NCBI GenBank assembly: GCA_022560555.1
Contig: JADFSZ010000085.1
Span: forward strand, 1-7,592
Direction of reading: 5' to 3'
DNA length: 7,592 bases
Source: PVC group bacterium
Lineage (GTDB): Bacteria; GCA-001730085; JADFSZ01
Positions 1-7,592 of the stretch are shown piece after piece. The first letter of the stretch is position 1, and every line of letters starts with the position of its first letter. Below the pieces are notes generated by a model. That model was not told where the DNA came from. It did no database searches and saw only the letters and a program-made list of their open reading frames with translations. Position numbers and translations under genes: made by a program.

Positions 1-2
1 CT

Positions 3-533
3 TGCCCTCCTTATGAAACATTGGAAATAATTGTTCAATCACCTTGGATGACTTCAAAGATAAACCCGAAAACAGGGGAAGTGAAAGTTACAGATAAACG
101 GCAAGATACTCCCTATGACGAAGATGATTTCCGGGCCCTTGATCCTTTAAATCACACACGGCTCTTTATCGCGAATCATGATTTAAAGATCCTGGATGAT
201 CTTACCGTTCAGCAAATCTATGTAATTGAGGGTATCTCCCAGATTGATGCGTCCGGGTATCATCGTGTTCGATTGACGGTGGGATATGAATACGGACTCC
301 TTTATTCTATTGAACGTTTTGATGAAAAAAATAACCTGATTGAGAGAATAGAATATGGCGCGTATCAGGAAATTTTTACGGGCTTCTGGTTCCCCTCTAG
401 CAAAATCAAATATTTCAGGGAGCCCGATGGAGGGACTTTGAAAATAGAGACAATCTATTTCCATATTCGCGTCAATATTGGGCTTGATGAACGGGATTTT
501 GAGGCGAGAAAGATTTTGGATTCAATGAGATAG
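3..533 (+). CDS. Hypothetical protein, probably 5'-truncated by the window edge; possible LolA-like / outer-membrane lipoprotein-sorting beta-barrel fold
   Basis: The frame is open from nt 3, with no stop before the TTG at 21 that the ORF track uses as start. The TAG stop is at 531-533. The sequence looks beta-rich and ends ...GFWFPSSKIKYF...IYFHIRVNIGLDERDF, a pattern I associate with LolA-like proteins. The functional call is by eye only and is weak. Confidence 0.6.
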   Translation, partial: CPPYETLEIIVQSPWMTSKINPKTGEVKVTDKRQDTPYDEDDFRALDPLNHTRLFIANHDLKILDDLTVQQIYVIEGISQIDASGYHRVRLTVGYEYGLLYSIERFDEKNNLIERIEYGAYQEIFTGFWFPSSKIKYFREPDGGTLKIETIYFHIRVNIGLDERDFEARKILDSMR

Positions 534-560
534 AACAGGAATAATCATGGAGGTGCTGTT

Positions 561-1001
561 ATGGCAAAAACGTTTATAATTCTAAGTCTTGCAATGGGGC
601 TCATGTTCGTATGTCCGGGGTTTGCCGAGGAAGCCGGGGAAGAGATCCCGGAAGTTCCGCCTATTCCTCAGGAATGGAAGGAAATATCCGGGTTTGGGAC
701 CATAAAGATTATTTATATGTCTTCGACGGGTTTAGAAGACGAAAAATATGTTGAAAAATTCTTAAAGAAAATGGTTAAAAAGGATGTTCCTCTTACACTC
801 TGGATTTTTGATGATGAGGCGACCACTCCCTTTGCTATGCCTTTTACGGATGTTCACAAGAAACACTGGAAGGCCCAATATACATATGATCCCGAAAATA
901 AGAGCGAAGAATTTTCTTTTATTGAACCCATAGATCCTGATAAAATCCCGATTGAACTTAGAGAAATCGAATCGGATATTAAAACGGGTTATTTTGACTG
1001 A
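561..1001 (+). CDS. Secreted hypothetical protein with an N-terminal signal peptide
   Basis: GGAGG at 549-553 lies 7 nt upstream of the ATG at 561. The N-terminus MAKTFIILSLAMGLMFVCPGFA|EEAGEE has a basic start, a hydrophobic core and an A-x-A-like cleavage site, followed by an acidic mature N-terminus. I recognise no family motif. Confidence 0.7.
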   Translation: MAKTFIILSLAMGLMFVCPGFAEEAGEEIPEVPPIPQEWKEISGFGTIKIIYMSSTGLEDEKYVEKFLKKMVKKDVPLTLWIFDDEATTPFAMPFTDVHKKHWKAQYTYDPENKSEEFSFIEPIDPDKIPIELREIESDIKTGYFD

Positions 1002-1017
1002 TGATTATTGGAGCCAT

Positions 1018-1686
1018 ATGAAGGGTAGACTGTATGCCGTCAAAAGTATTTTTGCGTTGCTCATTGTGTGCGCATTGATGGGAATGTTTTATATGAATCA
1101 GCGCAAGGGGACGGCTCAAAATCCTGTTTTGGATAGCGTCATGACTTTGGAGGAGGCCCTCGAGGGGCTTCATCCCGATTGTCCAAAAGAGATTAAAAAC
1201 CAACAGGTTCTCATTGATGTCACGTATTATGGTTTGGATCAATTGATTCATCAGGGACAAATTGTGCTTGATCGGGATCTCAGGCAAGATATCAAACATG
1301 TTTTTCAAATTATGTTAAAAGAACGATTCCCTTTGGCCAGTGTTATTCCTGTTTCAGATCCAAAGTTCCGTTCGGACCGCATATGGGATGATGAATTGTC
1401 CATGGCGCAAAATAATACATCCGGGTTTAATTACCGGTTTATAACGGGTCAAAAGAAAATCTCGGAACACGCGTTAGGACATGCGATTGATATTAATCCC
1501 CTTTTTAATCCGTATATAAAAGGGGCGCTGGTGCTGCCAACGAAGGCCGTATATGACATGAATCAAAGCGGAACTTTGTATAAAGGGCATCCTGTGGTAG
1601 AGACATTTAAATCTTTAGGCTGGACGTGGGGCGGGGATTGGGTCAGCCTGAAGGATTATCAGCATTTTGAGAAAGAAATCCTTTAA
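1018..1686 (+). CDS. M15 family zinc metallopeptidase (VanY / D-alanyl-D-alanine carboxypeptidase-like), N-terminally membrane-anchored
   Basis: It carries the M15 zinc-binding signature SxHxxGxAxD as SEHALGHAIDINP, plus a distal His in DYQHFE. A hydrophobic anchor (SIFALLIVCALMGMFYM) follows the ATG at 1018. I prefer ATG 1018 (GGAG at 1010-1013) to the track start at 952, which would overlap the upstream gene by 50 nt and add a non-hydrophobic extension. Confidence 0.8.
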   Translation: MKGRLYAVKSIFALLIVCALMGMFYMNQRKGTAQNPVLDSVMTLEEALEGLHPDCPKEIKNQQVLIDVTYYGLDQLIHQGQIVLDRDLRQDIKHVFQIMLKERFPLASVIPVSDPKFRSDRIWDDELSMAQNNTSGFNYRFITGQKKISEHALGHAIDINPLFNPYIKGALVLPTKAVYDMNQSGTLYKGHPVVETFKSLGWTWGGDWVSLKDYQHFEKEIL

Positions 1687-1695
1687 AAATCCTGG

Positions 1696-1724
1696 TTGAG
1701 AGAAGCAGGAAAATTTTGTACAAT
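1696..1724 (+). promoter_or_regulatory. Sigma70-type promoter upstream of the zinc-ribbon and histone genes
   Basis: -35 TTGAGA (1696-1701, 5/6 to TTGACA), exact 17-nt spacer, -10 TACAAT (1719-1724, 5/6 to TATAAT). It sits in the 83-nt gap after the M15 gene and about 45 nt upstream of the ATG at 1770. Confidence 0.55.
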
Positions 1725-1769
1725 AGATGCGGATCATTTTGATAGGGGTTACTGTCTAAGAAAGGGATC

Positions 1770-1979
1770 ATGGCCGATAATTATTATCAAAAATTTGTCG
1801 GAAGAAATGCTTCATACGAATGTCCTGGTTGTCACCAGACAAATATTGTCTATCTTGGTTCTTCGATGATACAAAAAAATGAATTTGAGGACGAATGCTA
1901 TGATTGTTCCCGTAAGAACGCGCTTATAGTCAAATTTGATTCCGAAGGACGACCCACTCTTAATCTTAAGACGGATTGA
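1770..1979 (+). CDS. Small zinc-ribbon protein (69 aa, CxxC...CxxC)
   Basis: AAAGGGA at 1761-1767 precedes the ATG at 1770. Two cysteine pairs, CPGC (residues 18-21) and CYDC (43-46), are spaced as in a zinc ribbon. After the second pair comes a beta-strand-like segment, NALIVKF. No catalytic motif is visible. Confidence 0.65.
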   Translation: MADNYYQKFVGRNASYECPGCHQTNIVYLGSSMIQKNEFEDECYDCSRKNALIVKFDSEGRPTLNLKTD

Positions 1980-2070
1980 GGAGTCTGAAAAAAGACTTGA
2001 AATATAACTCAAACCTATGTAAGGTAATTTACCGTTTCTCAATAATGATTTTAACTAAAGGGAGGCTTCT

Positions 2071-2259
2071 ATGGGTGATGATAAAGTGTTAGTTGTGGTT
2101 TCCAAGCTTAAAAATTATGTTCGAGAGAAATCAGGAATGAATACATCGGGCAATGTCGCGCCGAAGCTTTCTGAAAAAGTCCGGGAACTTTGTGACCAGG
2201 CGATTGAAGTCGCGAAGGCTGATGGGCGAAAAACAGTGATGGACAGGGATTTTCAATAA
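2071..2259 (+). CDS. Bacterial histone-fold DNA-binding protein (HBb / Bd0055-like singlet histone)
   Basis: A strong SD, AAAGGGAGG (2057-2065), lies 5 nt before the ATG. The 62-aa product is MGDDKVLVVVSKLKNYVREKSGMNTSGNVAPKLSEKVRELCDQAIEVAKADGRKTVMDRDFQ. The ...AKADGRKTVM.RD... block matches the L2/alpha3 GRKT(I/V)xxxD(I/F) motif of archaeal HMf histones. As I remember it, the whole protein is colinear with Bdellovibrio bacteriovorus Bd0055 (VLVVTSKVKK...GQMNTS...AKADGRKTVMARDI). Confidence 0.85.
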   Translation: MGDDKVLVVVSKLKNYVREKSGMNTSGNVAPKLSEKVRELCDQAIEVAKADGRKTVMDRDFQ

Positions 2260-2297
2260 AAGATTTCCTATGAATACGCTTGCAATTTTAAGCGGTC

Positions 2298-2364
2298 AAT
2301 CCCTCTTGCTTTATGGTTTTAGCGTGAAGAGCGTGAAAAATAAACAGCAAGAGGGATTTTTATT
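2298..2364 (+). terminator. Long hairpin plus U-tract after the histone gene; likely an intrinsic terminator or attenuator that also sequesters the downstream RBS
   Basis: A perfect 13-bp inverted repeat, AATCCCTCTTGCT (2298-2310) / AGCAAGAGGGATT (2346-2358), encloses a 35-nt loop and runs into TTTTTATT (2357-2364). The 3' arm contains GAGGGA (2351-2356), the only SD-like element before the GTG start at 2365. The loop holds a tandem AGCGTGAAG/AGCGTGAAA repeat (2321-2338). Confidence 0.5.
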
Positions 2365-3708
2365 GTGAAATCTCCGACAGTTTATAAGTCCCAAGGGCAG
2401 TTGCCGACAGGTTGGGATTGCAATGTGATTTTTATCGCGAACATCAACTCTTTGTTTTACGGCAATGAATTTGAAACAAATATTTTAAGGAATGAGATTG
2501 GCTCCATTGATACCTACGGGGGCCGGTTGGTTCCGTTTCTGAATCTTCTATTTGACAAATCTCAGAATCTTCTTGTTCTTGAAAGAACCCCTGATCCAAA
2601 GCTCCTGGAATATTTCAAAAAAGATTTAAAATTAAACCTGCCCGAACTATATATCTTAAGTCATGACGCTTATGATAAAATTACGAACTTCCAACAAGGA
2701 TATGAATGTAAGGAATTAAAAGTACTGCGAGACCACCCCGCAAGCCACCTTGATGGCTATGTGACGGATTCCGGCCTTGAAAACCTTGCTGAAAAAATTC
2801 AAAAATCCACCATTTCTACATCAGCCGGCAGCCGGAAGGGAAACAATAAACTCCTGTTACATGAGTTCCTAAAGCAACAGAACTTACCTGTTTTTGACAC
2901 ATTTATTGCCGAAGATAACCGTGCCGTTCAGAAGCATCTTCCTTTGTTAAAAAAAATGGGTTACTCTCGTGCTGTGGTTAAAGCCCAAATTGGAGCCTCC
3001 GGGATTGGGATGGTGCGTATGGATTTAAACCTCCCGCGGGAAATTCCCAAGTATTTATTTTATGAAGGAGCGTGTCTCGTCCAAGGCTGGTTGGATGAGG
3101 AAGTCCCGGGGATTGAACGCGTGGGTTCTCCGAGCATACAAATTTTTGTTAACCATGAAGGGATTTACCTCTGGGACATCACCGAACAAATATTAAGTCC
3201 TGAAAGCGTGCATGAAGGTAATGTGAGTCCGCCTCCTTATTTGGTCGCGATGGATGAAATTTGGACAGAGCTATTTCGTCAAGCCGAATGTGCCGGGCGA
3301 TGGCTCCATAGCCTGGGTTATCGTGGGACGGGCAGTATAGATTTTCTTGTCGTGAAACGTAATAAAAAAAATGAAGTGCGTATATGCGAAATCAATGCCC
3401 GTGTTACAGGAGCAACGTATCCGTCCATGTTGGCAAAACACTTCCTTCCTCACGGAGCATGGTTGATGAGAAATGTTCGATTTTCTCCCACACTTAACAG
3501 CGGCCGGATTTTTGACCGGCTCAAAAAGAAAAACTTACTTTTTTGCAAATCAGACAAAAAGGGAATTCTTCCGATTAATTTTAATCTCGACCGAAAGGAC
3601 CGGGTTTGCAAAGGGCAATTTTTAGCACTGGCAAATACTCATGATGAAGTGGTATCATTAATGGATAATTTTAAGTATGAAAACATAGGAGATTTTGATC
3701 GTGACTGA
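2365..3708 (+). CDS. ATP-grasp fold ligase (peptide/amide-bond-forming family) with an unassigned ~190-aa N-terminal domain
   Basis: ATP-grasp hallmarks appear in order. First comes the Lys plus Gly-rich loop AVVKAQIGASGIGMVRM, then the hinge LVQGWLD. The Mg/ATP-binding E-x-N motif follows, in GSIDFLVVKRNKKNEVRICEINARVTGATYPS. It uses a GTG start with no in-frame ATG nearby. Its stop (TGA, 3706-3708) overlaps the start of the next gene. Confidence 0.8.
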   Translation: MKSPTVYKSQGQLPTGWDCNVIFIANINSLFYGNEFETNILRNEIGSIDTYGGRLVPFLNLLFDKSQNLLVLERTPDPKLLEYFKKDLKLNLPELYILSHDAYDKITNFQQGYECKELKVLRDHPASHLDGYVTDSGLENLAEKIQKSTISTSAGSRKGNNKLLLHEFLKQQNLPVFDTFIAEDNRAVQKHLPLLKKMGYSRAVVKAQIGASGIGMVRMDLNLPREIPKYLFYEGACLVQGWLDEEVPGIERVGSPSIQIFVNHEGIYLWDITEQILSPESVHEGNVSPPPYLVAMDEIWTELFRQAECAGRWLHSLGYRGTGSIDFLVVKRNKKNEVRICEINARVTGATYPSMLAKHFLPHGAWLMRNVRFSPTLNSGRIFDRLKKKNLLFCKSDKKGILPINFNLDRKDRVCKGQFLALANTHDEVVSLMDNFKYENIGDFDRD

Positions 3709-4831
3709 GAATGAACATGATGACCGTATACTGGACCGGCTTGTCGCGTTAACGCGTGATCTGATCCTGATCCCGAGCATCCCGAGCCGTCCCGAAGATA
3801 GACGAAGATGCTATGAATTTGTACGGAATCACTTGGAGGCCATTGAAAACGTTGAAGTTTTTGAGTATGAACATCATGGAATTCCTTCTCTCGTTGCAAT
3901 GCCGGTGAATGTGCGTGAACCGGAAGTCTTGATGTGCGGCCATTTGGACGTCATCACTCATCCGGATGTGTATTCCTATCGATCGTATATCGAAGACGGA
4001 AAGATTTATGGTCCCGGAGCGGGGGATATGAAGGGCGCTCTCGCGATTATGTTGGAAATTCTTCGGGATTTTCACACCAAACATCCAGGAGTATCCCTTG
4101 GTCTTGCCGTGACAGCGGATGAAGAAACAGGCGGAAAAGCGGGTATCGGATACCTTTTTGGAAACACAAATCTTCGATGCGGGGCCGCTTTGATTCCGGA
4201 TGGAGGATCCTTAAACGAAATCACCATTGAGGAAAAGGGGATTCTACATATCAAAATACGCTGCCAAGGAAGAGCGGCACATGCCGCGCGCCCCTGGCTA
4301 GGGGATAATCCGATTGAAAAGTTGATGGATCGTCTGAGCAATTTACAAAAATATTTTTCATCATTTAAACGTGATGAAGATCATTGGTTTCCGACATGCT
4401 CTATTACCATTATCGGCACCGAGAATCAAACGATCAATAGAGTTCCTTCTAACTGTGAAGCTATTTGCGATATCCGCTTTCCTTCTCCTTTTACGATTCA
4501 GGAAATTATGGATAAAACCAGGGAGGTTTTGGGCGCCGATGTCGAAATCGAAGTTGTGATTAGCGCGGAGCCGACTCATTTATCGCCTGATCCGCTGTAT
4601 CAACAAGTCACGGAGGAGATTACAGGAGAGCCGGCCGCGCTCGTTCGAGAGCATGGGGGGAGTGATGCGCGTTTTATTTATGCGGGTGGCGTTCCGATTA
4701 TGATGTCCCGTCCTATTGTCGGGAATTTGCATGCTGAAAACGAATGGATTAATATTCAATCTATGATAAAATACTATAGAATTTACGAGAAATATTTAAC
4801 AATAAAACTCCTAAAAAAATCGAAATCTTAA
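3695..4831 (+). CDS. M20 family metallohydrolase (ArgE/DapE/acylase/carboxypeptidase-type amidohydrolase)
   Basis: M20 metal and catalytic motifs are present: HxD in LMCGHLDVITH, bridging Asp in GPGAGDMKGALA, the Glu-Glu pair in VTADEETGG, and the late HAARPWLGDNPIEK and GGSDARF blocks. The start is ambiguous. TTG 3695 (ORF track) or GTG 3701 is possible, and AGGAG at 3687-3691 gives GTG 3701 the better 9-nt spacing. Either start overlaps the ATP-grasp stop, which suggests translational coupling. Confidence 0.85.
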   Translation: MIVTENEHDDRILDRLVALTRDLILIPSIPSRPEDRRRCYEFVRNHLEAIENVEVFEYEHHGIPSLVAMPVNVREPEVLMCGHLDVITHPDVYSYRSYIEDGKIYGPGAGDMKGALAIMLEILRDFHTKHPGVSLGLAVTADEETGGKAGIGYLFGNTNLRCGAALIPDGGSLNEITIEEKGILHIKIRCQGRAAHAARPWLGDNPIEKLMDRLSNLQKYFSSFKRDEDHWFPTCSITIIGTENQTINRVPSNCEAICDIRFPSPFTIQEIMDKTREVLGADVEIEVVISAEPTHLSPDPLYQQVTEEITGEPAALVREHGGSDARFIYAGGVPIMMSRPIVGNLHAENEWINIQSMIKYYRIYEKYLTIKLLKKSKS

Positions 4832-4852
4832 AAAAGTAAAAAGGAGGGGGCA

Positions 4853-5029
4853 ATGGGACTTATCAGATTTATCGCGTGGGGATGTATGATGATAGGATTA
4901 GGCGGTTTTCTTCTGGATGCGCTTACGGGCATATCCGAAGGAATTTATCATGTGATTCCTTTTTTGCTTGTAGGAGTCGCCATGGAAGCTGTTTATCAAG
5001 AATTAAAGAAGATTCATTCAAAAATGTAA
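4853..5029 (+). CDS. Small membrane protein (58 aa, two predicted hydrophobic helices); not in the supplied ORF track
   Basis: A very strong SD, AAAGGAGGGGG (4840-4850), lies 2 nt before ATG 4853. Translation: MGLIRFIAWGCMMIGLGGFLLDALTGISEGIYHVIPFLLVGVAMEAVYQELKKIHSKM*, with TAA at 5027-5029. It has two hydrophobic segments and a basic C-terminus. It starts 21 nt after the M20 stop, so it likely belongs to the same operon. The overlapping track ORF 4876..5061 has no SD and an implausible Arg/Cys/Ser-rich product. Confidence 0.6.
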   Translation: MGLIRFIAWGCMMIGLGGFLLDALTGISEGIYHVIPFLLVGVAMEAVYQELKKIHSKM

Positions 5030-5057
5030 ATTTGATTTACACTCTCTTTCAAATTTT
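5028..5057 (+). terminator. Weak AT-rich hairpin at the end of the small membrane-protein gene (possible operon terminator)
   Basis: An 8-bp inverted repeat, AAATTTGA (5028-5035) / TCAAATTT (5049-5056), has a 13-nt loop. The stem has only one G:C pair and the trailing T-run is short, so this is marginal. Confidence 0.25.
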
Positions 5058-5242
5058 CTAAGAGATCTTAGATTATTTTGGTAGTTTGTGTATTGTGGAC
5101 TTGATGAAGCCCTTCCGTGGTGATGAGGCAGGATGCATGTTTGTTGAGTCCTGAAAAGTTGTTCCGGATCAGGAATTTTCATAAGTTATTGTTTTTGTTT
5201 CGATTAGGACTCATTCAGCAAAAAAAACTCGCCATTTCTAGT

Positions 5243-5270
5243 TCGACCGCTATAATAACCCTATTATAAT
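5243..5270 (+). promoter_or_regulatory. Candidate sigma70 promoter for the thioredoxin-fold gene
   Basis: -35 TCGACC (5243-5248, 4/6), 16-nt spacer, perfect -10 TATAAT (5265-5270). A second TATAAT at 5251-5256 lacks a credible -35. It lies about 35 nt upstream of ATG 5305. Confidence 0.35.
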
Positions 5271-5304
5271 TATACTGTTACAGTGAAGGTTTTTGGAGGT
5301 TGAT

Positions 5305-5922
5305 ATGAAGGCCAGAACCCCGGTTGTTCTATCTTTGGCTCTTGTCCTGCTTTTATTTGGCACCAAGCTCCTTGTGGCTGAGCCGCTTGTCGCCGAAAAG
5401 GCTCCTGATTTTACGCTGACGGATACGAACGGTGTTTCCCATACGCTTTCGGATTATCAAGGGCGCTATGTTGTCTTGGAATGGGTCAATTATGATTGCC
5501 CTTTCGTTCGTAAACATTATAAGTCGGGAAATATGCAGGACCTGCAAAAGGAGTACACGCAAAGGGAAGTTGTTTGGCTTTCCATATGTTCTTCCGCCGA
5601 AGGGAAGCAGGGCCAATTTTCCAATGCGGAAATCAAGAATCGTATGGACGAATATGACGCGTCGCCGACACATTATTTGAATGATCTAGACGGATCTGTG
5701 GGCAGGCTCTATCAAGCGAAAACGACGCCGCACATGTTTATCATAAATCCCGAGGGCATTTTGGTCTATCAGGGAGCCATTGATAATCACCCGTTTTTTT
5801 GGGAAAAAGGCCTGTTTGATGCCACGAATTATATCCGTGAAGCTTTGGATTATGCCATGAATGGCCAGTCTGTTGCCGTGACAAATACAAAGTCTTACGG
5901 GTGTTCGGTAAAATATAAATAA
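5305..5922 (+). CDS. Secreted thioredoxin-fold (redoxin / AhpC-TSA-like) protein
   Basis: GGAGG (5295-5299) lies 5 nt before ATG 5305, which I prefer to the track's TTG at 5293. The signal peptide is MKARTPVVLSLALVLLLFGTKLLVA. The thioredoxin-fold core is APDFTLTDTNGVSHTLSDYQGRYVVLEWVNYDCPFVRKHY, with a single active-site Cys (CPFV, not CxxC). It also has TPHMFIINPEGILVYQGAID and a C-terminal YGCSVKY, features I recall as typical of a widespread periplasmic redoxin family. Confidence 0.8.
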   Translation: MKARTPVVLSLALVLLLFGTKLLVAEPLVAEKAPDFTLTDTNGVSHTLSDYQGRYVVLEWVNYDCPFVRKHYKSGNMQDLQKEYTQREVVWLSICSSAEGKQGQFSNAEIKNRMDEYDASPTHYLNDLDGSVGRLYQAKTTPHMFIINPEGILVYQGAIDNHPFFWEKGLFDATNYIREALDYAMNGQSVAVTNTKSYGCSVKYK

Positions 5923-5956
5923 AGCAGAAAAGTTAGAGAGGAATGAAAGGCTAAGC

Positions 5957-6802
5957 ATGGCGCAAGAAAAAACAAATACCGATTCAACCGCACAAGCAAC
6001 GTGGTGGAGTGAATATGAATTTCTTAATCCTGGTATAAAGCTCTCTCTGAAAATGAAATTGCTCCATGAAGAAAAAACTCCTTTTCAGAAATTGGAGATT
6101 TATGATCACAAATACTTAGGTCGGGTTCTTGTTCTTGATAGTGTTGTGCAGACAACAGAAGAGGATGAATTTATATACCATGAGATGTTAACACACGTTC
6201 CGTTGATGGGGCGCAAAAACGCGGGCAAAGAAAGTTCGAGTGTTCTGATTATCGGGGGCGGAGACGGAGGAATGTTACGGGAAGTGCTCAAACATGAATG
6301 GGTAAGCCGGGCTGTGATGGTTGAGCTTGATCAGGCCGTTGTCACATCATGCGAGAAATTTCTTGGATTTAACGGGGATTACAATGACTCCCGTGTCAAA
6401 CTCATTTTTGGTGACGGAGCTGCCTATGTGGCGAGCGAAGAAGCCAAAAATAATCCCTTTGATGTGGTGATCATTGATTCGACGGATCCCATTGGTCCGG
6501 GTGAGATTCTTTTTAGCGAAGAGTTTTGTCAAAATGTTCATAATTGTTTAACCCCCACGGGAGTCATGGCGCGTCATCTTGGTGTTATGGCGTTTCAAAA
6601 AAGCGTCATGCCGGATGGACATAAAAAACTGACAAAAATTTTTGGCAACGCACAGGCTTTTCGAGCGGCTGTTCCAACCTATATCGGCGCGGATATGGTT
6701 TTTATGCTGGCAAGCAAGGATGGGCACGATTGCCGAAAGCCGTGTCTTGAATTTTCGGGTAAATATTATAATCCGGATGTTCATTCCGATTCATTCGCCT
6801 AG
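5957..6802 (+). CDS. speE: Spermidine synthase (polyamine aminopropyltransferase), with an apparently truncated C-terminal motif
   Basis: It is colinear with E. coli SpeE as I remember it: VLDSVVQTTEEDEFIYHEMLTHVPL, the signature VLIIGGGDGGMLREVLKH, DVVIIDSTDPIGPGEILF, and YYNPDVHSDSFA at the end. The TAG stop at 6800-6802 falls inside the conserved FALP motif (see findings). Confidence 0.9.
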   Translation: MAQEKTNTDSTAQATWWSEYEFLNPGIKLSLKMKLLHEEKTPFQKLEIYDHKYLGRVLVLDSVVQTTEEDEFIYHEMLTHVPLMGRKNAGKESSSVLIIGGGDGGMLREVLKHEWVSRAVMVELDQAVVTSCEKFLGFNGDYNDSRVKLIFGDGAAYVASEEAKNNPFDVVIIDSTDPIGPGEILFSEEFCQNVHNCLTPTGVMARHLGVMAFQKSVMPDGHKKLTKIFGNAQAFRAAVPTYIGADMVFMLASKDGHDCRKPCLEFSGKYYNPDVHSDSFA

Positions 6803-6835
6803 CCCACATGGTGGCAGGATAGCTTATCCAGTTAG

Positions 6836-7271
6836 GCAATACATCCGTACAAAATTATTTTTTTCAATTTCCACCTTTCAAAACCTCCTTGATATTAATC
6901 AATGATTTTATTACTCCAGATTTGTAATGTTTTGCAAATTCGAGAGCGACCATGTGAGAACTAGAAGCAAGTTGTGTATCTCCTCCAAAAAATTTTATTA
7001 TTCTCAAAATTTCCAACATCAAAAAAAAGTAATGATTTCGTCCGTAAAAAGACATGATATTCATGAATACTTGAGTAATGTGAAGCATGCAAACAGTACA
7101 TTAGAACAAGTCTCGAGAAAAATAGTATTAATACTTCAATACCTATGAAAAATATAAAGCAATAAAGTTTTTGATCATTACGATTCTTTCAAACAATTGT
7201 GAAGTTCAATCATTTATTAAAAAATAGAAGGTTATGTACAAATATTTTAAAAATGAATGTTTTGTATTTAT
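6836..7271. other. AT-rich region without a convincing gene; compositional junction between the bacterial gene array and the actin gene
   Basis: The region is visibly richer in A/T runs than 1-6835 (for example TTATTTTTTTCAATTT, CAAAAAAAAG, TTATTAAAAAATAG). The only ORFs, 6864..7088(-) and 6927..7148(+), overlap each other, lack SD motifs and have no recognisable motifs. It contains a 12-bp perfect palindrome, AGTATTAATACT (7124-7135). Confidence 0.5.
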
Positions 7272-7592
7272 TTAGAAGCATTTTCTGTGAACAATGCCAG
7301 GTCCAGATTCATCATATTCTTTCTTAGAAATCCACATTTGTTGGAAGGTTGATAAAGATGCCAAAATCGATCCACCAATCCAGACAGAGTATTTTCTTTC
7401 AGGAGGAGCAACAATTTTGATTCTCATGGTATCAGGTGCCAAAGCAACGATTTCTTTGTTCATTCTTTCGGTAATTCCTTCAAACATAGTAGTTCCACCA
7501 GACATAACAATGTTACCATACAAATCTTTTCTGATATCGACATCGCATTTCATGATGGAGGTATAAGTAGTAAGGTGAATACCATCTTGTTC
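7272..7592 (-). CDS. Actin, conventional eukaryotic type: C-terminal 106 codons plus stop, with the 5' part outside the window
   Basis: The minus-strand frame is open to the window edge. Translation: [106 protein letters not shown], with TAA at 7272-7274. It matches the canonical actin C-terminus almost residue for residue ([57 protein letters not shown]). It is far too similar to be MreB, ParM or FtsA. Confidence 0.95.

Follow-up and report, generated by a model that had tools for sequence, protein, structure and literature searches.

Actin is a highly conserved and abundant gene of eukaryotes. Eukaryote-like cell biology in bacteria of the PVC superphylum has long been debated.

One described system close to the locus analysed here is the actin ActM of Microcystis aeruginosa PCC 7806. 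ActM shares 65% identity with eukaryotic actin, is expressed, is paired with a profilin (PfnM), and was acquired by horizontal gene transfer (HGT)(PMC3254629). The strain is cultured and fully sequenced, and its ActM gene is part of a genomic island(PMC3254629). A first-pass annotation of the DNA studied here had named the actin/profilin pair of this strain as a precedent, and the published work confirms that the precedent is real(PMC3254629). A second kind of system offers a different comparison, namely the chimeric sequences that arise during metagenomic assembly, which are a recognised source of contamination in metagenome-assembled genomes (MAGs)(PMC8862208).

Here we analyse a contig of 7,592 nt deposited in the MAG of a PVC group bacterium (hereinafter designated the window), which carries bacterial genes and ends in an actin fragment. 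Like ActM, the actin in the window is of the conventional type and is attached to a bacterial genome record. Unlike ActM, it comes from the end of a single MAG contig, is absent at the locus in conspecifics, keeps a eukaryotic composition, and is 82–89% rather than 65% identical to eukaryotic actins. The locus also resembles the chimeras and contaminants described in MAGs(PMC8862208), in that it combines a foreign contig end, an abrupt switch in composition, a native continuation in conspecifics, and a eukaryotic gene annotated as bacterial. It differs from plain mis-binning, because here bacterial and eukaryotic DNA are joined within a single contig, with no long repeat shared between them. 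We put the probability that the contig is chimeric, with bacterial DNA misjoined to a scrap of protist DNA, at about 0.88.

Results

The window ends inside a conventional eukaryotic actin gene

The features of the window are listed in Table 1. The rightmost open reading frame runs open to the contig end, so that the contig stops inside actin. The first-pass annotation described it as the minus-strand C-terminal 106 residues of a true actin, and translation reproduces both the coordinates and the sequence that it quoted. The fragment is 100% identical to NCBI MCH7505027.1, which is annotated as "actin, cytoplasmic 2, partial [PVC group bacterium]" on a 7592-bp MAG contig; the product of the adjoining speE gene is MCH7505026.1.

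Table 1. Coordinates of the features of the window and the evidence for each
Feature	Position	Strand	Evidence
Rest of bacterial gene array	1–5922	+	Pfam, NCBIfam; collinear with conspecific contigs
speE, polyamine aminopropyltransferase	5957–6802	+	PRK00811 (275 bits) and TIGR00417 (260 bits), NCBIfam, both above cutoff
Mismatch-rich zone	6789–6883	+	Four-relative alignment, private-change counts, Fisher test
Remnant of the speE-leuS spacer	6839–6883	+	Alignable to L084–L087
Breakpoint	6883/6884	.	BLAST ends at 6872–6883 for four relatives; alignments
AT-rich non-coding DNA downstream of the actin stop	6884–7271	−	GC 0.268; no conspecific counterpart
Conventional eukaryotic actin 3' end, last 106 codons and TAA	7272–7592	−	Translation; Pfam Actin; PDB actins; identical to MCH7505027.1

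The identity of this segment as actin is far beyond chance. Specifically, the Pfam profile PF00022 (Actin) matches the fragment with E=8.7e-46 and 156.7 bits (cutoff 27) over profile positions 304–410 of 410. Solved 375-residue actins in the PDB align to it at residues ~270–375 with E~1e-58, with Dictyostelium actin as the top match, and the canonical C-terminus IVHRKCF is present in the aligned region. The profile match above cutoff and the 82–89% identity to eukaryotic actins place the fragment among conventional eukaryotic actins, an assignment that applies to the C-terminal 106 residues.

The sole NCBIfam match of the fragment is NF040575, a bacterial actin family named syringactin (129.8 bits, E=9.6e-38), which would make the fragment bacterial and not eukaryotic. 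The score is below the 300-bit cutoff of that model, although the fragment spans just 98 of the 286 model positions. The sequences closest to the fragment are eukaryotic. Moreover, the same region of other actins scores comparably against NF040575, with 141 bits for fish, 139.4 bits for Penicillium, 130.6 bits for Capsicum and 128 bits for Paulinella. The match is thus generic to conventional actins, membership in the syringactin family is refuted, and the chance that the fragment belongs to it is vanishingly small. A search for literature on the name "syringactin" returned none. As for the model itself, NF040575 is an equivalog model against which the C-terminal third of conventional eukaryotic actins of any kind reaches 128–141 bits; when pieces of such actins turn up in bacterial assemblies, it will therefore be the one NCBIfam match that they show.

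The actin resembles those of a rhizarian testate amoeba and environmental protists

The nearest non-self actins are 87–89% identical to the fragment and comprise the actin of Paulinella micropora (EukProt EP00808 P014031), a rhizarian testate amoeba, with 89% identity over 106 residues, and unnamed environmental sequences. Actins of animals, plants, fungi and amoebozoans are 82–84% identical. Apart from the fragment itself, the protein database contained no actin more than 89% identical to it.

The fragment has the signatures MFEGI(A/T)ERM and KE(I/V)... in common with the actins of Paulinella micropora and environmental protists, while ~11 private residues set it apart from actins of the Paulinella type. 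The first-pass annotation had noted that the fragment departs from textbook actin and had attributed the odd residues either to an unusual lineage or to evolution after transfer. Because the same residues are found in Paulinella micropora and environmental actins, they are signatures of a lineage and not the product of drift after transfer; the first of the two attributions stands and the second falls.

At the nucleotide level, the closest environmental actins are 72–74% identical to the fragment, with a GC content of 57% versus 37% in the actin of the window, which points to an unsampled AT-rich protist as the donor. The donor appears rhizarian-like from the protein comparison, its placement in Rhizaria resting on one named neighbour. 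Scans of JGI metagenomes with the actin 3' end and with the 24-mer just right of the breakpoint gave 0 matches each.

The environmental actins that have the odd residues sit on contigs carrying actin paralogs only. Two of these are short JGI contigs of 57% GC, one with two tandem actin copies at 35–1554 (L088) and one with two convergent copies at 83–1553 (L089). They represent arrays with several actin copies in a protist group that has the FEGI/KIVAPP signatures. An intron in the actin locus of L088, the nearest environmental one, was considered and rejected, the arrangement being two tandem actin copies instead.

The left part of the window is an ordinary bacterial gene array

The array consists of ten open reading frames, all on the plus strand, which encode a LolA-like protein, a 146-aa secreted protein, an M15 peptidase, a CPXCG zinc-ribbon protein, an HBb-type histone, an ATP-grasp protein, an M20 deacylase, a 58-aa membrane protein, a redoxin and SpeE. 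All ten are intact apart from a truncation of speE.

For comparison we gathered conspecific contigs via identical histone proteins and the 90% cluster of speE, which gave seven contigs with 96.5–98.3% nucleotide identity to the window. L001 and L085 are from the NCBI MAG GCA_022561295.1, while L002, L003, L084, L086 and L087 are from ENA assemblies of other samples. L001 is 98.3% identical to the array over 563–3804, and L084 and L085 are 97.5–97.7% identical over 3764/3872–6883. The Pfam and NCBIfam matches and the conspecific contigs agree with the earlier view that the left part is bacterial.

SpeE has 281 aa in the window and 292 aa in 4/4 conspecific contigs. It is 98% identical to P0121, with a C-terminus 11 residues shorter. 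The difference is due to an in-frame TAG at 6800–6802 that is private to the window; the four conspecific contigs have TTG (Leu) at this position, and their frame stays open for a further 11 codons (LPTWWQDSLSS) until the ancestral stop, a TAG at 6836–6838. A scan of GTDB representative genomes for speE gave a best match of only 47% identity and no information on synteny.

In conspecifics the sequence continues from speE into leuS

Four independent conspecific contigs (L084, L085, L086 and L087; 97–98% identity; three other samples) span the 3' end of speE. In 4/4 the native order is speE, a spacer of ~60 nt, a GGAG motif and a GTG-initiated leuS. Specifically, the start of leuS on the native path reads ...TGGAG(A/G)AAAATCGG..GTG.AAAAATATTC, and the encoded protein begins V(E/K)KYSFHDIERKWRTFW.... 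Annotation and the domains tRNA-synt_1, tRNA-synt_1g and tRNA-synt_1_2 define this protein as leucine--tRNA ligase. A homology search with it retrieved the sister MAG copy, followed by ~63% identical proteins of Planctomycetota MAGs; this search brought up no leuS contig belonging to the MAG of the window.

The window leaves this path within the spacer. At the breakpoint the window reads ...TTTCAAAA|CCTCCTTGATATTAATC... and the relatives read ...TTTTAAAA|TGGAGAAAAATCGG.... The BLAST ends and the alignment together place the breakpoint inside the speE-leuS spacer (Table 1), just upstream of the position where the relatives have the leuS ribosome-binding site (GGAG) and the GTG start. The first-pass annotation had ended the bacterial part at about 6835. 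This value does not hold as a boundary, because homology runs to 6883; it corresponds to the ancestral speE stop. The same annotation had proposed a search for a syntenic actin in related bacteria, and the outcome is negative, in that the four conspecific contigs carry speE-leuS without actin.

One explanation for this arrangement is a genuine and very recent strain-specific HGT, in which a protist actin together with its native 3' flank was inserted in the speE-leuS spacer; leuS and the remainder of the insert would then lie past the contig end. Both parts are contiguous in the deposited contig, the breakpoint falls in a spacer between genes, where an insertion would be tolerable, and Microcystis aeruginosa PCC 7806 provides a precedent for actin transfer from a eukaryote to a bacterium(PMC3254629). 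We nevertheless consider such a transfer very unlikely. The actin is absent at the locus in four conspecific contigs of 97–98% identity, the foreign part is just 709 nt and lies at the contig end, and the fragment is much closer to eukaryotic actins than is the accepted precedent ActM. The transfer requires an event recent enough both for an unchanged composition and for absence from four relatives of 97–98% identity, and its positive support extends no further than contiguity in one short-read MAG contig.

Composition switches at the breakpoint

Right of the breakpoint, the 709 nt from 6884 to 7592 have no homology to L084–L087. Their composition differs from that of the bacterial part by several measures. 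The GC content is 0.313, versus 0.372–0.477 in bacterial windows of 709 nt, and the CpG observed/expected ratio is 0.63, versus 0.82–1.44. The tetranucleotide distance to the bacterial profile is 0.041, versus a maximum of 0.033 in the bacterial windows of the same size. A comparison of tetranucleotide profiles on the two sides of the junction had been suggested in the first-pass annotation, and it places the right segment outside all equal-sized bacterial windows.

The same annotation had called the codon use of the actin distinct. Its counts are correct, with all Arg codons AGA (5/5) and all Pro codons CCT (4/4), the corresponding fractions in the bacterial genes being 0.16 and 0.32. G-ending codons of four-fold boxes are rare in the actin, with 1/40 versus 250/851 in the bacterial genes (Fisher p=3.9e-5). 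By aggregate synonymous-codon likelihood, however, the actin is no outlier, with −1.58 versus −1.40 to −1.60 for the bacterial genes. Since the aggregate likelihood fails to separate the actin, its codon use is distinct only in the sense of G-ending codons and CpG.

Between the breakpoint and the actin stop lie 388 nt of AT-rich DNA (Table 1), which are probably the 3' UTR of the actin and protist intergenic DNA. AATAAA hexamers occur 0 and 54 nt past the actin stop and are compatible with a eukaryotic 3' end, a weak sign in sequence this AT-rich. Two open reading frames in this spacer (6864–7088, minus strand; 6927–7148, plus strand) were considered as genes and rejected, as they have no Pfam match and a flat GC content by codon position. 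In length, the open stretches of 6884–7271 do not exceed those of shuffled sequence (p=0.057). Scans of this segment and of the junction detected no terminator, tRNA, Rfam element, integrase or other island hallmark.

These properties argue against the insertion of a protist actin by HGT as well. GC content, CpG and codon use of the segment are unshifted towards bacterial values, and the actin is accompanied by a non-coding, eukaryote-like flank without a mobile-element, tRNA or integrase signature. Presence at the locus in the four conspecific contigs was not observed, nor were the signs that residence in a bacterium would leave, namely a composition or codon use shifted towards the host, bacterial expression signals such as a terminator, and divergence from eukaryotic actins.

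The bacterial sequence becomes rich in private mismatches next to the breakpoint

Polarised by means of L084 and L085, 27 changes over 3.0 kb are private to the window. In an alignment with all four relatives, seven of these changes (6789, 6801, 6841, 6864, 6873, 6875 and 6879) lie directly in front of the breakpoint, in a stretch that is almost invariant among the relatives. The density is 7/95 nt in this zone versus 20/2917 nt elsewhere (Fisher p=1.3e-5), and among the seven is the TTG-to-TAG change by which speE loses 11 codons. Identity to the nearest relative drops to 96% and then to 89% in the last two bins.

The nonsense mutation and the clustered private mismatches beside the junction speak against HGT as the source of the actin. 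The raised divergence could instead be real and mark a recombination or insertion tract, as such a transfer might leave.

The truncated speE and the private changes clustered near the junction also speak for a transfer in the opposite direction, in which the window would derive from a protist nuclear genome with a recent insertion of ~6.9 kb of DNA from a PVC bacterium (symbiont or prey) beside the host actin. Such an origin is likewise compatible with the contiguity of the two parts, yet we regard it as extremely improbable. The ten bacterial open reading frames are otherwise intact, and the bacterial part is collinear with ordinary bacterial contigs at 97–98% identity. Private changes in the window comprise 8 synonymous and 8 nonsynonymous substitutions (plus one stop), versus 19:17 and 7:8 in the free-living sister lineages, so that there is no sign of relaxed selection; the ratio is like that of the sister lineages, and the bacterial genes are thus without sign of decay. 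In addition, the breakpoint fits a pattern of contig-end artefacts that is seen also in L085.

Outside the mismatch-rich zone, five linked differences occur at 6723–6739 (GGGCAC..CCGAAAG versus AAC/GACCAC..CAGGAAA, including an Arg CGA/AGG double change). This cluster was considered as private to the window and rejected, as L086 has it too, unlike L084, L085 and L087, which makes it ordinary polymorphism. The block suggests recombination or old polymorphism among strains of the species.

A contig of the sister MAG also has a foreign end

The contig L085 (JADFRM010000098.1, GCA_022561295.1) begins with 290 nt (positions 1–290) of 65% GC that contain an open reading frame, in a genome of 42% GC. 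Within the M20 gene this foreign DNA gives way to native sequence, at a point corresponding to ~3770–3790 of the window. The join shows an 18-nt exact match, then ~9 mismatches in ~42 nt, and then ~99% identity. The native sequence across the join point is intact both in L001, which belongs to the same MAG, and in the window. The start of L085 is therefore contradicted by L001 and the window and probably represents another chimeric end among the contigs of this MAG series, in which foreign ends with mismatch-rich junctions thus recur. ENA assemblies of the same species are without such foreign ends. That the two NCBI MAGs come from a shared submission series is read from neighbouring MCH75xxxxx accessions and an identical organism label.

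This equivalent foreign end, contradicted by another contig of its own MAG, is a further point against HGT in the window.

Discussion

Of the two explanations that the first-pass annotation had offered for the actin, its headline reading, in which the bacterium acquired the actin of a host, is opposed by the presence of speE-leuS without actin in four conspecifics, the unshifted composition, the mismatch-rich junction and the analogous end of L085. The same observations, taken with the foreign composition right of the breakpoint, favour the second explanation, a chimeric contig. Consistent with a misjoin, composition switches at the breakpoint, the native continuation is the same in all four conspecifics, a contig of the sister MAG has a foreign end, and the foreign part is short and terminal. 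From the breakpoint, native continuation, composition switch and mismatch cluster seen in these sequences we infer that the join is artefactual, and the route by which it arose is likewise put forward as an inference from them.

In a chimeric contig, positions 1–6883, which end in the speE-leuS spacer, would genuinely belong to an uncultured bacterium of the PVC group related to Planctomycetota, and positions 6884–7592 would be a 709-nt scrap of a protist genome, comprising the last 106 codons of a rhizarian-like actin and its AT-rich 3' flank. The two may have been joined in silico, where the assembler took a wrong path through a short-read graph of low coverage that was tangled by strain variation, or in vitro, as a chimeric fragment from library preparation or amplification. 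The whole contig would then have been binned into the bacterial MAG, and the NCBI pipeline would have annotated the actin as bacterial.

A search for a long repeat behind a k-mer mis-join yielded only a 10-nt inverted match (4513–4531 / 6879–6897), which is too short. This result and the fade of bacterial homology through mismatches, in place of an end at a clean shared k-mer, count against a misjoin, as do the lack of a protist copy in the metagenome scans and of a leuS contig from the MAG of the window. The lack of a long shared repeat suggests a graph error at low coverage or an in-vitro chimeric fragment. The gradual, mismatch-rich fade at both junctions, that of the window and that of L085, points to paths of low coverage or with errors and speaks against a clean k-mer collision.

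Since the join is almost certainly an artefact, the fragment gives no grounds for crediting a bacterium with a eukaryotic actin. The record MCH7505027.1 most likely mislabels a protist gene, and MAG surveys for eukaryotic signature proteins in bacteria would take this actin as a false positive. Were HGT true, the window would be the second clear case of a bacterium with a conventional eukaryotic actin, in a histone-bearing, Planctomycetota-related marine bacterium, and would bear on eukaryote-like traits in PVC bacteria and on gene flow from eukaryotes to bacteria. A further actin fragment filed as bacterial (P0106) is on a contig of 742 bp recorded as Corynebacterium sp.

What is real and of greater biological interest in the window is on its bacterial side, an HBb-type histone of a deep-branching PVC lineage. 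Because the leucine--tRNA ligase of the host is nearest to those of Planctomycetota MAGs (~63%), the histone is assigned to a deep-branching PVC bacterium. The histone-fold protein (62 aa; 2071–2259, plus strand) matches the structures 8FVX and 8CMP of Bdellovibrio Bd0055 (HBb) over residues 5–61 with E=4e-13, while the histone models of Pfam and NCBIfam match it below their cutoffs only. An identical 62-aa protein is encoded on three other contigs from different samples.

Directly upstream of the histone gene is a Cys-rich open reading frame (69 aa; 1770–1979, plus strand), which is called as a gene in L001 too and has a sub-threshold match to the zinc-ribbon family Cys_rich_CPXG (E=1.9e-4). 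Further downstream, within 2365–4831 (plus strand), an open reading frame for an ATP-grasp-like protein of 447 aa, with sub-threshold matches to ATP-grasp_3 and the RimK family, overlaps the start of the gene for an M20 deacylase of the ArgE/DapE type by 14 nt, ~1.1 kb upstream of speE. The two proteins may form an uncharacterised amide-ligase/deacylase pair linked to polyamine metabolism.
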